A stretch of DNA of 64,000 nt from contig OZ024756.1 in the NCBI GenBank assembly GCA_964016885.1, positions 6,820,001 to 6,884,000 on the forward strand. The letters are read 5' to 3'. The notes below the pieces were generated by a model that did not search any database, had not been told where the DNA came from, and saw nothing but the letters and a program-made list of their open reading frames with translations. Position 1 is the first letter of the stretch, and each line of letters starts with the position of its first letter. Position numbers and translations under genes: made by a program. This stretch comes from Eledone cirrhosa (Eukaryota). Below, piece by piece: positions 236-64,000 of the stretch.

Positions 236-887
236 AGTACAAAAAGGGTTTCATTTACAGTATTAACAATTGTTTCACTGATTAAGTTGTTTAAAAATTG
301 CTAATCACTTGAAGTCGTGTCACTCAATTTTAAATACGATGTATACTTAACAAAATCATCAGAGAAACTGATGATTTGGTTAAGTATACATTTGTATTTA
401 AAATTGAATGACACAACTTCAAATGATTATCAGATTTTAGACAACTTAATCAGTGAAACAATTGTTAATACTGTAAATAAAACCCTTTTTGTACGATAAA
501 ACCCTTTTTGTGTGTATGACTGACACTCATACACACACACACACATATATACACATATATATGTGTATATAAATACACATATACACATACATATACACAT
601 ACATACATACGCACATAAATATCAACACATCCATACATACACATATACAAGCACACACACATATATACACACATATATATATGGAAAAATAAATATATAT
701 ATATATACACTCTTTCACTATTATTACTCCAAGATTAACTTGCATAGGAATTCCCGACAACTCACGAACTCGCTACCTAAGGAAAACCTCTTGTTGAGTC
801 AAACAACGCCGTACGCTAAAACTATCCAGAATACGGAGTATTCACAACGTCTAACTGGATTACCTATAACGATAATTTGTTACGCCA
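236..887 (+). mobile_element. Penelope-like palindromic element (arms 236-361/368-494) with hammerhead core and 3' tail (710-887), interrupted by an insertion
   Basis: gtacaaaaagggtt...aaccctttttgtac inverted arms; CTGATGA at 368 and GAAAC-AATT-GTT at 455; 710-887 is homologous to the reverse complement of the tail at 29853-30040. Confidence 0.7.
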
Positions 888-1319
888 TATATATATACAT
901 ATATATATATATATATATATATATATATATATATATATATATATATATAAATGAAGTAATTCCGTCGGAAAAGTCCAGGAAAAAAGAGTGCTCTATGTAG
1001 GTAACAGAGCTTAATAGTTATGTAATAAACAACATAAAGCAATTATTACATTTACCAGTGGTTTCTTAAAAGCAAAAAAATTTGCTTTCATTCCTCAGAA
1101 GGAAAAAATCCTGGTCTGTTTATTAAATTTGGATTTTAAAAACAAAAATGCAATCTATATGAAAGTGAGGCTTGAGAAAGAAGAAGGAAAGGAAAAATGA
1201 AATAAAACCACACATGCAAACACACACACACACAAACACACACACACACACAAAAGCATACATACACACACACACACACACACACACACATATATATATA
1301 TATATATATATATATATAT

Positions 1320-1851
1320 AAACAAATAACGAAACGAAATTAAATTTCGTTTCGCTTCTAACTCACTTTTGTATGACTGACGCTTAAACAATTAAGTTAA
1401 AGTGTACATCTACATATGTATACGGAAGTACTAGTATGCATATAAATACACACATGTATACATATGTACATGTACCGAGTTTTTCACTAGACACTTTACA
1501 GTGAGTGTCCAGCTAGTCTGTATGTAAACAAACAGACGAACCGGGTTTTAAAGTCATACGAGTGTTCAAGGAAACACACTTCCTCTATTCTCCAGAGAGC
1601 CAGACAGGAATATTGGACTAGTTTCGATGTTATTACATCTCATCAGCAATATTTACCTATCTTCCGGCTTCTCTGGAGAATTGTAAAAGCACATATCGTT
1701 ATATGCTTTTTCTATGAAAATCAGTAGTGGGCAGACTAACTTGCATAGAACGTGAGTCATTGTACGCGCCGGTTCAGCGGAAACGATAAAAACAAATAAC
1801 GAAACGAAATTAAATTTCGTTTCGCTTCTAACTCACTTTTGTATGACTGAC
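1320..1851 (-). mobile_element. About 470-bp hammerhead-containing unit with terminal direct repeat (pLTR/retrozyme-like)
   Basis: aacaaataacgaaacgaaattaaatttcgtttcgcttctaactcacttttgtatgactgac at 1321 and 1791; internal hammerhead; homologous to 24250-24760. Confidence 0.7.
1609..1653 (-). ncRNA. Minimal type I hammerhead ribozyme
   Basis: Minus strand: aatattg CTGATGA gatgt-aata-acatc GAAAC ta GTC caatatt; perfect stems I and II, GUC triplet; stem I extends via tctccagag/ctctggaga. Confidence 0.9.
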
Positions 1852-2348
1852 ACTCATACACACACACACACATATATACACATATATATGTGTATATAAA
1901 TACACATATACACATACATATACACATACATACATACGCACATAAATATCAACACATCCATACATACACATATACAACCACACACACATATATACACACA
2001 TATATATATGGAAAAATAAATATATATATACATATATATATATACATACATATATATATATATATATATATATATATATATATATATATATATATATATA
2101 TATATATATATATATACATGCATACACATACATAGCTATACACACATACATATACATACATACATACATGCACGTCGGGGTCAAACAATTTCCTATATAC
2201 ATATATAATATACACATATATATAAACCGATTACGCACACACGTGTCCCTGTGTTTAACTATTATTAACTTTGCCTTTAATTATTGAGGGGTCGACTAAA
2301 TAAAGTACCAGTAATAAACTGTCCTTGTGTCTAGAGGAGAAATCATTG

Positions 2349-3190
2349 CTAGTAGTAGAAGTGGTAGTAGTATTAGTAGTAGTAGTAGTAGCAGTATTAG
2401 TAGTAGTAATGGTGGTAGTAGTAGTAGTAGTAGTAGTAGTAGTAGTAGTAGTAGTAGTAGTAATGGTGGTGGTAGTAGTTGTAGTAGTAGAAGTAGTAGT
2501 AGTAGTAGTAGTAGTAATGGTGGTAGTAGTAGTAGTAGTAGTAGTAGTAGTAGTAGTAGTAGTAGTAGTAATGGTAGTAGTGGTAGTAGTAGTAGTAGTA
2601 GTAGTAGTAATAGTAGTAGTAGTAGTAGTAGCAGTAGTATTAGTAGCAGTAGTATTAGTAGTAGTAGTAGTAGTAGTAATAGTAATGGTGGTAGTAGTAG
2701 TAGTAGTAGTAGTAGTACTAGTAGTCGTAGTAGTAGTAGCAGCCATTTTCTACTTACCCACCACGACAATGTCACCAGTAGCCAACTCTACCACTACCAC
2801 TACCACCATCACCACCACCAACACCACTCCCCCTACCCCAACCACCACTACTACCACCACCACCACCACCACCCAAATACTATCCCCCCCCAACACCACC
2901 ACCACAATTTCAGCAGTAGCCAACTATACCACCACCACAATATTACCAGTAGCCAACTCTACTACCATCACCATCACCACCACCACCACCACCACAATGT
3001 CACCAGTAGCCAAATCTACTACCACCACTATAACTACCACCACCAACACCACCAACACCAACACTACCACCACCACCACCACCACCACCACCTCCACCAC
3101 TATTACTACCACCACCACTACCACCACTACCACCGCCATCACTATCCCCACCGCCCTCACCCCACCACCACCACCACCACCACCACCATT
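2349..3190. repeat. (TAG)n followed by (CAC)n trinucleotide low-complexity tract
   Basis: Direct inspection; explains the poly-T/V/S/H ORFs. Confidence 0.95.
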
Positions 3191-3834
3191 ATCTAGTTAC
3201 CCATCACTCCCAGTAAATATATTTTATGAAGGTTTATCAACTTGACAATCTGCAGTGGTTCAGTTTATATAAATCTACGTTAAAACCCTTCATTTATAAG
3301 AGCTACTTGTTCCTTACCGGGAATCTAGTCTAAATAAACACTGTGTGGTCCCCTCAATATAACAAACATTTTAGACTGAACGATGGCTTCTAAGAGAGAA
3401 GACCCCTGAGATGGTTCCTTCCGTTTTAATTAGATTTTGATAATCAGCGGAATTTTTATAGTTAAGTGGTTTTACTAAAACAGACTCAAAATAGCTAACA
3501 AACAAATATAAGGAATATATGAATACGGTACTTTGGGTAACGGTGTATGTGTTGTAGTTTGTGTATACACATACATATAGAGTTATACACACGTAGACTC
3601 ACACACACACGCATGCATATACACACATACACTCATACAAGCACACTATACCCGCCACGCCTGTATGTATATATATATATATATATATATATATATATAC
3701 GCACACGCTCGCCCACATATTTTAATCATATATATATACCCGAAACAAACCCATACAAACACACACATATTTATATATATATATGTATATATATATATAT
3801 ATATGTGTGTGTGTGTGTATATATATTTATATAT

Positions 3835-61878: not shown

Positions 61879-62532
61879 ATATATATATATATATTAGATA
61901 GGGGGCGGAAACAAACAACTAGACCATGACCCAACAGACTCCTCGATACCTGAGCTAGTAGAGTGGGTAATATGAAAAGATTCAGGAGCTCTACGGCTGG
62001 AGCTCAACCGCTGAAGTCCTGAATCTCTTCACACACACACACAAATATATATATATAAGTGTATATATATATATAACGAAGGAAATCTGGTAAGAAACCA
62101 GATGGAGCATAACGCACCAAAGTACTCAATATTTAGGGTAGTAGAGTGGGTAATAGGAACGAGTAGGACCCCGACGGCTGAGCTCAAGCCGTTTCGACGG
62201 CTAATTCTGGACTAAAATGTCAGGGGTCCTACTCGTTCCTATATATATATATATATATATATATATATATATATATATAAATGAGAGGTATAGAGATTGT
62301 TTTAGCAAGAAGCTAACGGCATTCTATAACATATATGCGACTATAACGTCAAGATGGGAAAAGTAGTTAACGAAAGATTTAGGAAAAATAACTCAGACTC
62401 ATCTCAAAAGAGAATCAGGATATAAATTCATCCACAGAATTTAGTAAAATCCATGGAAAAATCTATAGACCTTTAACACATGATAAAATAAAGTTTGAAA
62501 CACTCATCCTTCAATTTGGAATAACATCAAAT

Positions 62533-62613
62533 GCTCTGTATAGTCTTAAAAGACTATTTCATGAAAACTTTCAGTGGAGATGGTCACGGTTGGATTTCAT
62601 TCATCAGCAGAGC
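62533..62613 (-). ncRNA. Canonical type I hammerhead ribozyme
   Basis: gctctg CTGATGA atgaaa..tttcat GAAA t-agtct-ttta-agact ATA cagagc; all three stems perfectly paired. Confidence 0.9.
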
Positions 62614-63160
62614 TCAACAGAAACCAGGGCTCTCACAGTAATATAATCCGAAAAAGGGAATTCTAAAACTGGCTAGTTCACCTTCATGTGTATTTATGAA
62701 AAAGCACATGAGGAAAAAACGGGGCTAGTGACGTCAGGGTGGAAGTGAATGTTTATTTACAAGAAATAGCAGTCAAATACATTCTGAAAAAAACTCTACA
62801 AAGGAGTTCAGCAAAATAGCAATAATTATCACAGTTTTTATGAAAAAAACCGGGATTAGTCACAGATAGTTTAAGCACTCTAGGAAAAGAATCCGAGTAT
62901 AAATATAAATGAGAGGTATAGAGATTGTTTTAGCAAGAAGCTAACGGCATTCTATAACATATATGCGACTATAACGTCAAGATGGGAAAAGTAGTTAACG
63001 AAAGATTTAGGAAAAATAACTCAAACTCATCTCAAAAGAGAATCAGGATATAAATTCATCCACAGAATTGAGTAAAATCCATGGAAAAATCTATAGACCT
63101 TTAACTCATGATAAAATAAAGTTTGAAACACTTATCCTTCAATTTGGAATAACATCAAAT

Positions 63161-63241
63161 GCTCTGTATAGTCTTAAAAGACTATTTCATGAAAACTTTC
63201 AGTGGAAATGGTGACGGTTGGATTTCATTCATCAGCAGAGC
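63161..63241 (-). ncRNA. Canonical type I hammerhead ribozyme, second copy
   Basis: Identical core and stems; two substitutions in loop II only. Confidence 0.9.
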
Positions 63242-63869
63242 TCAACAGAAATGTATATATAATATGATACGAAACAAAAGGAGTTGTGTGGTTACTAAAA
63301 ACAAGGTTTAGGATGGTGGTTTGGTCGGAACAAGAGGAGAAAAGAAGAAAGAATCCTTCGTCAGCTGTAAACCTGCGATCCAGATGTTTCGGCGCTTATT
63401 TACGAGACAAAAGGAAGGAAAAAGAGGGAAAAGGGGAAGAAGAAAAAAGGGGAATAGGTGGTGAGGAGAAAAGAAGAAAAAGAAAAGGGAAAAAGGAGAA
63501 TAAAACAGGTGAACAGATCCCATCGTATACATGTATGTATGTGTTTGTGTGTGTAGTAGTAGTAGTAGTAGTAGTAGTAGTAGTGGTAGTATTAGTAGTA
63601 GTAGTAGTAGTAGTAGTAGTAGTAGTAGTAGTAGTAGTAGTGAAAGTGCAATTGGATAGCGTTCACAGGAGCTATGCCAAGATGAGTATTCGATGGTATT
63701 GGGGAGTAGAGTATCAATAATAATAATTAGGGAACAAATCAGTATATGATACAATACTGATTCCTTGTTCCCTAATTATTATTATCAGTTGAAGTATTCT
63801 TTGACTATGCAAGGAATACTTCAACTGATAAGGTATGTTCCTTGGCTATGCCAAAATTTATAAAACACA

Positions 63870-64000
63870 CTTTGTATTTTATCTGATGAAAGCGTACCAA
63901 AGTTTTTGGTACCCTTGAAATATATATAATAGAATAAATATGGTTTTATAAATATAGTTTCCATTTATTTAATATCATTGAATATTTACTCCAGAGAACT
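63870..64000 (+). mobile_element. Family G 3' end with hammerhead (63875-63936)
   Basis: tattttat CTGATGA aagcgtacca-aagttt-ttggtaccctt GAAA tatat ATA atagaata. Confidence 0.8.

Follow-up and report, generated by a model that had tools for sequence, protein, structure and literature searches.

Described systems and the Eledone cirrhosa window

Hammerhead ribozymes of Penelope-like elements (PLEs), retrozymes and the link between them have been published for many animals (PMC4209133, PMC7229834, PMC8557442). According to Cervera and de la Pena 2014 (PMC4209133), the hammerheads found in the pseudo-long terminal repeats (pseudo-LTRs, pLTRs) of endonuclease-encoding (EN+) PLEs adopt a type I fold with a small palindromic helix III, fall into many diverse families per genome and occur mostly as solo truncated copies or as opposite-strand pairs. 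Metazoan non-LTR retrozymes, as presented in PMC7229834 and bioRxiv 10.64898/2026.07.22.740005, are low-GC tandem units without open reading frame (ORF) that carry one type I hammerhead each and form dispersed arrays; their mobilization by Penelope is proposed there. The entry of retrozyme circles into genomes and the role of Penelope hammerheads are put as open questions in PMC7229834 and PMC8557442. Here, we describe a 64 kb stretch of the 3.0-Gb genome of Eledone cirrhosa (contig OZ024756.1, positions 6820001–6884000, hereafter the window), a microsatellite-dense region that contains 22 type I hammerheads. These probably belong to the end repeats of Penelope-like elements, likely of the Hydra clade, and to ORF-less retrozymes that a Penelope enzyme likely pasted into (TA)n tracts, the template likely being monomer RNA circles produced by a predicted self-cleavage. 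The observations behind this reading are the folds, the ORFs to which families A, B, G and L are linked, the tandem organization of C, D, E and F and the shape of the insertions.

All features listed above for the PLE hammerheads and for the retrozymes recur in E. cirrhosa. Compared with the hammerheads of PMC4209133, helix III segments are 6–10 nt long or form a full 8-bp stem, stem II of family L measures 100–116 nt and the estimated number is about 2.5e5, as against 2,000–9,000 minimal motifs there (the descriptors differ). The retrozyme units are 457–628 bp long, whereas 150–450 bp are quoted for those of PMC7229834 and bioRxiv 10.64898/2026.07.22.740005; the Penelope insertion footprint and the array-fixed variants reported below are genomic signs of the mobilization step proposed in these two papers. 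The Hydra-clade PLEs of Craig et al. 2021 (PMC8557442), including Hydra-1_Obim of Octopus bimaculoides, share with the E. cirrhosa elements the C-terminal GIY-YIG domain, the DKT, RW[K/R], CxCX5C, CxxC and CxH motifs, the (TA)n target, the hammerheads and an inverted arm plus tail. The present ones differ in forming another family as judged by eye, in their unit of about 4.6 kb (<3 kb there), in their tails of about 60–105 nt (30–40 nt there) and in being present in very many copies (66,675 loose candidates). Poseidon from Anolis (Frangieh et al. 2024, PMC11167929) is alike in its AT-rich target, in the cutting and extension of both strands and in internal reverse transcription starts matching the tail but is autonomous, belongs to another clade and was assayed with linear RNA. 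A search of the open-access literature turned up no paper on octopus retrozymes or array-fixed variants, which is not proof of absence. Both kinds of element are known, and what is added here is their count, candidate helpers of the Hydra type and a footprint of the template.

Hammerhead numbers in the window and in the genome

The window was searched with a strict type I descriptor, compared with 3 × 200 dinucleotide shuffles, and with a wider one (stem II up to 200 nt), compared with 2 × 100 shuffles. The motif CTGANGA alone is about twofold enriched (48 occurrences versus 21–23 in shuffles, maximum 36). The strict descriptor gave 17 matches (0.045–0.09 in shuffles, maximum 2) and the wider one 21 (0.09–0.14, maximum 2); combined, they retain 22 hammerheads with a CUGANGA and GAAA core, an NUH triplet, helices I–III and an open helix I, far above the value of about 0.1 obtained by chance. 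A first-pass annotation, made from the letters alone, had announced more than 20 such motifs, and this number holds. Most of its coordinates miss the stem I boundary by no more than a few bases and 15 of its 17 positions pass (18 of 20 sites, 14860 being counted four times). The two that fail belong to real families: position 368 is a decayed fold-back copy devoid of stem I and 60739 has a stem I mismatch. Four passing sites, all on the minus strand, were absent from its list (4254, 10289, 29093 and 60424). The CTGANGA sites at 1098, 5485/6382, 9573, 12640, 45978, 49805 and 54653 fail both descriptors and were dropped.

Rfam and repeat searches of the window were dominated by microsatellites, in Rfam as matches to miRNA models; the 150 Rfam matches listed out of 456 include a single hammerhead, HH9 (1594–1664), with 33.7 bits for a gathering score of 52. 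The motifs, which standard annotation had been expected to mask as low-complexity DNA, are not of that kind: they survive the masking of short tandem repeats, which removes 25% of the window, and are merely flanked by (TA)n tracts.

In 39 evenly spaced 10-kb stretches of the genome (390 kb) searched with the wider descriptor, 32 hammerheads were found versus 0.8 in shuffles, i.e. 0.82 per 10 kb, which extrapolates to about 2.5e5 in the genome (bootstrap 1.2–3.8e5). This is about twice the 120,000 hammerheads reported for the axolotl, with descriptors that differ. Seven of the matches came from a single stretch; the four giant chromosomes contributed 11 in 200 kb and the remainder 21 in 190 kb. 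The description of the window as saturated is right for its density of 3.3 per 10 kb, about four times the genome average, and is to be taken as relative to that average. The sample touched 19 hammerhead clusters and all loci collected touched 38. The large and diversified PLE/ribozyme radiation put forward earlier is supported. The main text of a 2026 repeat annotation of Octopus vulgaris is silent on ribozymes (PMC13282606). Additional families were seen outside the window (L026:8427,8912; L069:1071,3270; L087:1253,1267; L092:5806,6229; L142:2719-4840); they include a 485-bp tandem, one family adjoining Penelope ORFs in L069 and some with a full stem III.

Families and fold

The window holds ten families (eight clusters, G and the decayed K), in line with the roughly 8–10 proposed at first. 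They are separate families; calling them unrelated was too strong, as stem I is common to A and B. Nor are they all minimal type I hammerheads: stem II measures between 11 and 116 nt, and stem III of family C is 8 bp long.

The fold of family A was examined in 21 copies chosen by similarity. In their alignment, 96.6% of cells are paired, versus 39–50% in slid controls. Stem II shows compensatory changes at six of its nine pairs, with a covariation score reached in none of 500 shuffles, a control that related sequences can inflate; stems I and III show one-sided variation or none. Most helix III segments are palindromes: of the 13 common short variants, nine are perfect and four contain one non-Watson-Crick position. 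This is the build described for dimer hammerheads in PMC4209133. In families A, F and E, the octamer ATGCAAAT (or ATGCAAGT) is found at a set distance of 88–125 nt upstream of the core (at −125 in 19 of 75 A matches, −88 in 12 of 17 F matches and −100 in 2 of 3 E matches) and is possibly a promoter of the small nuclear RNA type. We presume a parallel with the octamer promoter of newt satellite 2, which a literature look-up did not confirm.

Families linked to Penelope-like elements

Four of the ten families (A, B, G and L) are tied to the ends of Penelope-like ORFs that encode a reverse transcriptase (RT) and a GIY-YIG endonuclease; for B and G, the ORF evidence consists of ORF pieces and the pLTR evidence of inverted arms. 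The earlier assignment of the hammerheads to Penelope pLTRs stands for these four and had not set apart C, D, E and F, which are ORF-less tandem retrozymes. Family L provides the most complete elements. Its intact ORF encodes 834 amino acids (aa), with Atlas matches of 0.96–0.98 carrying HTH_animal, GIY-YIG and RVT_1, and in three of four loci it is framed on both sides by the hammerhead with a long stem II. The elements have direct hammerhead pLTRs, a truncated inverted arm and a tail at one end. A Pfam search gave no match for the GIY-YIG fragment of the window or for an 817-aa ORF. A decayed duplicate of the L hammerhead region (7223–7379 and 4471–4628) lies just upstream of the intact one, as it does in full-length elements.

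The L ORF displays RWR, DKT, a CxCX5C linker, CxxC and CxH, lacks GxKF/Y, and its elements target (TA)n. This is the whole set given for the Hydra clade in PMC8557442, RWR standing for the RWK-like motif and, when compared by eye with the supplementary alignment of that paper, the ORF follows the Hydra rows, which include an octopus member. From these motifs, the family L elements likely belong to the Hydra clade. The Neptune clade was rejected on the linker, which is CxCX5C and not CX2-5CxxC.

Family A adjoins a broken RT+EN ORF at one locus (L141), where the CNC...C linker is also present. Family A copies are truncated on the 5' side, carry inverted arms and, at one of their ends, an 85-nt tail, and are bordered by (TA)n. 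In three of the 29 other loci of family B, the repeat lies about 1 kb downstream of a GIY-YIG end and shares its strand, and family G follows the stop codon of an ORF in L074. Most solo hammerheads are short stumps truncated at the 5' end and are probably passengers.

Tandem retrozymes and the shape of their insertions

Families C, D, E and F are dispersed arrays of tandem units with one type I hammerhead each (457 bp for D, 470 for E, about 482 for F and 628 for C); no long ORF was found in the units of the window and young copies are 97–100% alike. Family D, present with variants in the four contig sets compared, was studied in 85 insertions chosen by similarity or by a short junction (57 of 85). 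The 31-nt junction of D with (TA)n occurs 75 times and its reversed control never. The 3' ends, inserted into (TA)n, cluster at two sites located 86 and 190–194 nt past the predicted cut, and 48 of the 52 two-armed insertions combine one short and one long end; the 5' ends are scattered. An apparent excess of 5' ends close to the cut site was discounted, since fragments <28 nt go undetected and end up in that bin. The end pattern of D recurs in the two-armed loci of E and, among 20 arrays of F, in 10 of the 10 two-armed ones that could be resolved.

The footprint of these retrozymes is a (TA)n target and back-to-back arms, one of them with a longer tail. In D, F and E, this shape matches both the inverted arm and tail of Penelope elements as described in PMC8557442 and the internal priming on two strands reported for the anole element (PMC11167929). 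The young families D and F reside in the same genome as intact Hydra-type ORFs and, with their predicted RT start sites, lend themselves readily to experimental tests.

Strand-biased variants within arrays

Family D arrays yielded 33 fixed variant events, meaning that each unit of the insertion that covers the site has the variant (for 19, across both arms), along with 3 partial events, 103 singletons and 94 uninformative events; the corresponding numbers are 71 fixed, 17 partial and 112 singletons for C and 1 fixed, 3 partial and 19 singletons for F (193 hammerheads, outside the masked microsatellite). On the RNA strand, A>G makes up 10 of the 23 distinct fixed variants of D versus 6 of 103 singletons (p 2.5e-5) and 6 of 21 versus 10 of 112 in C (p 0.02). 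In the pooled spectrum of D, C and F (E, whose reference is a minor haplotype, was excluded; in C, site 527 was removed and the polarity of site 49 reassigned), A>G accounts for 17 of 45 fixed variants versus 16 of 234 singletons (p 3.5e-7), and fixed A>G outnumbers T>C 17:5 (p 0.002). Singletons lean the opposite way, towards T>C (44:16, p 0.013) and G>A (44:28, p 0.044), as wobble errors of an RT would give. A strand-biased change common to all units is most simply explained if one monomer was copied repeatedly; the copying of retrozyme circles had already been proposed (PMC7229834, PMC4209133).

A model of retrozyme mobilization and its alternatives

The lifecycle of the retrozymes could be drawn as follows. 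Tandem transcripts would cleave themselves, mostly as dimers formed through the palindromic helix III, and the monomers would be ligated into circles. The RT/GIY-YIG protein would cut a (TA)n tract and start reverse transcription at two set positions inside the RNA, both downstream of the ribozyme cut site and one per DNA end, which would produce back-to-back arms, one with a longer tail. The RT would then run around the circular template for a variable number of turns before dropping off at random. In an extension of this model that we hold tentatively, at somewhat less than even chances, the roughly quarter-million hammerheads include arrays that record directly how a single RNA circle, edited by ADAR, was copied over and over by a Hydra-clade Penelope enzyme starting at both ends of a DNA break, A-to-I edits being written back into the genome and wobble-type RT errors marking single units.

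Several facts weigh against copying from circles by a Penelope helper. This helper is deduced from the insertion footprint, and loci chosen by similarity or short junction favour young copies. In contrast to what is seen in D, E and F, each of the 44 insertions of family C consists of a single arm with one fixed end, lacking a second arm and a tail; C also has a complete stem III and may depend on a different helper or way of priming. It has 17 partial variants beside 71 fixed ones. The spacer lengths with repeated phase in L273 and the several partial variants of L295 and L300 indicate that some arrays grew at the DNA level or came from multimers. No ORF was found within 1.5 kb of family H in 30 loci. 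Lastly, hammerhead cleavage is dispensable for insertion of the anole element in vitro (PMC11167929). The same elements and helper could instead have used an uncleaved linear multimer, with the hammerhead as a passenger and the uniformity of arrays coming from uniform parents or from later unequal crossing-over or conversion. The anole data and the phase-repeated patterns of L273, L295 and L300 would fit such a template, as would the 3' ends, which never coincide with the cut site, and the fixed D variants that are lineage alleles common to several loci (437C>T, 234C>T and 173A>G). We nevertheless consider it unlikely, since homogenization at the DNA level gives no strand bias, an edited multimer would yield the A>G singletons that are scarce here, and the variants of D are nearly all-or-none.

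The template could also be a circle, as we propose, with an A>G excess due not to ADAR but to selection on RNA structure, which would tolerate A-U to G-U and G-C to G-U changes. Such selection, which we hold less likely than not, agrees with fixed C>T also exceeding G>A (8:2, p 0.11), and 8 of the 10 A>G sites of D are predicted to be paired, which fits editing equally; their neighbours are mixed. It accounts poorly for the few A>G supplied by singletons, for fixed A>G being twice as common as C>T and for the recurrence of A>G at D sites 173 (8 loci), 23 and 154 (3 loci each). The view that the motifs match the descriptors by chance in repetitive, AT-rich sequence, or represent satellites devoid of any ribozyme role, is refuted for the set as a whole and hardly credible: false positives do occur (0.8 per 390 kb) and a few matches have weak stems (40011, 50080), yet the shuffles, the covariation of family A and the fixed position in Penelope end repeats all contradict it.

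Features of the window

Table 1. Hammerhead-bearing elements and related features of the window (positions counted from its first nucleotide)
Feature	Position	Strand	Hammerhead (strand)	Remarks
Family K fold-back	237..494			Decayed, with a long stem II and without its stem I; CTGATGA at +368 and -362; fails both descriptors
Family E, 470-bp unit and partial unit	1321..1849	-	1609-1653	GTC triplet; palindromic helix III
Family L Penelope-like insertion, 5'-truncated	4067..7783	+		Insertion ~5740-7783; inverted second arm 4067-5746; (TA)n at left
Family L hammerhead	4122..4263	-	4122-4263	Stem II region 105 nt; wider descriptor
GIY-YIG endonuclease, C-terminal fragment	5679..6299	+		CxCX5C linker, CxxC, CxH; 89-96% identity to intact 834-aa ORFs elsewhere
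Family L hammerhead	7587..7728	+	7587-7728	Stem II region 105 nt; wider descriptor
Family L subfamily fold-back	10094..10637		10146-10298 (-), 10296-10448 (+)	Stem II region 116 nt; right arm longer
Family A fold-back	10715..11152		10960-11025 (+)	Mirror copy at -10807 with 3-nt deletion at cut site
Family D, four 457-bp units	14779..16600	-	14858-14942, 15315-15399, 15771-15855, 16228-16312	Between (TA)n tracts
Family F copy	24140..24759	+	24411-24453	Short inverted arm
Family A copy	24865..25085	+	24976-25045	
Family A fold-back	29003..29548		29035-29103 (-)	Mirror near 29365, altered core
Family B copy	29652..29806	-	29682-29752	
Family B copy	39820..39977	-	39850-39920	
Family G copy	40003..40139	+	~40007-40044	Weak hammerhead
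Family H hammerhead	50074..50120	+	50074-50120	CTT triplet; older family
Family G fold-back	54360..54502			Core altered or cut off
Family A fold-back	60242..60636		60366-60434 (-), 60530-60598 (+)	
Family G copy	60735..60871	+		Stem I mismatch; fails descriptors
Family C, 628-bp tandem	62270..63251	-	62531-62615, 63159-63243	8-bp stem III
Family A copy	63782..63993	+	63873-63938	

Other repeats

Six fold-backs devoid of a passing hammerhead (3914–4017, 8771–9067, 21393–21736, 22026–22452, 30024–30622 and 42987–43271) are possibly stumps of other Penelope-type families. Two arrays have no hammerhead core, one of 85 bp × 18.7 with 95% matches (43421–45009) and one of 19 bp × 38.7 (25399–26137). 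The plus strand carries two other retroelements: a non-LTR retrotransposon ORF fragment with RVT_1 and a weak zf-RVT (18713–20533), which we take to be RTE-like, and a GC-rich long interspersed element (31403–36364) whose ORF1, with a zinc-knuckle-like motif, is followed by frames for an endonuclease and an RT, interrupted by a single stop near 34292. Another repeat, about 190 bp long and resembling a short interspersed element, is dispersed, with copies 80–95% alike at 9303–9430, 11255–11442, 23317–23737, 42685–42833, 45215–45405, 47540–47727 and 61235–61355. Finally, a 540-bp repeat family (37613–38149, 39344–39751 and 46539–47075; 87–97% alike) has copies that end at a long microsatellite.

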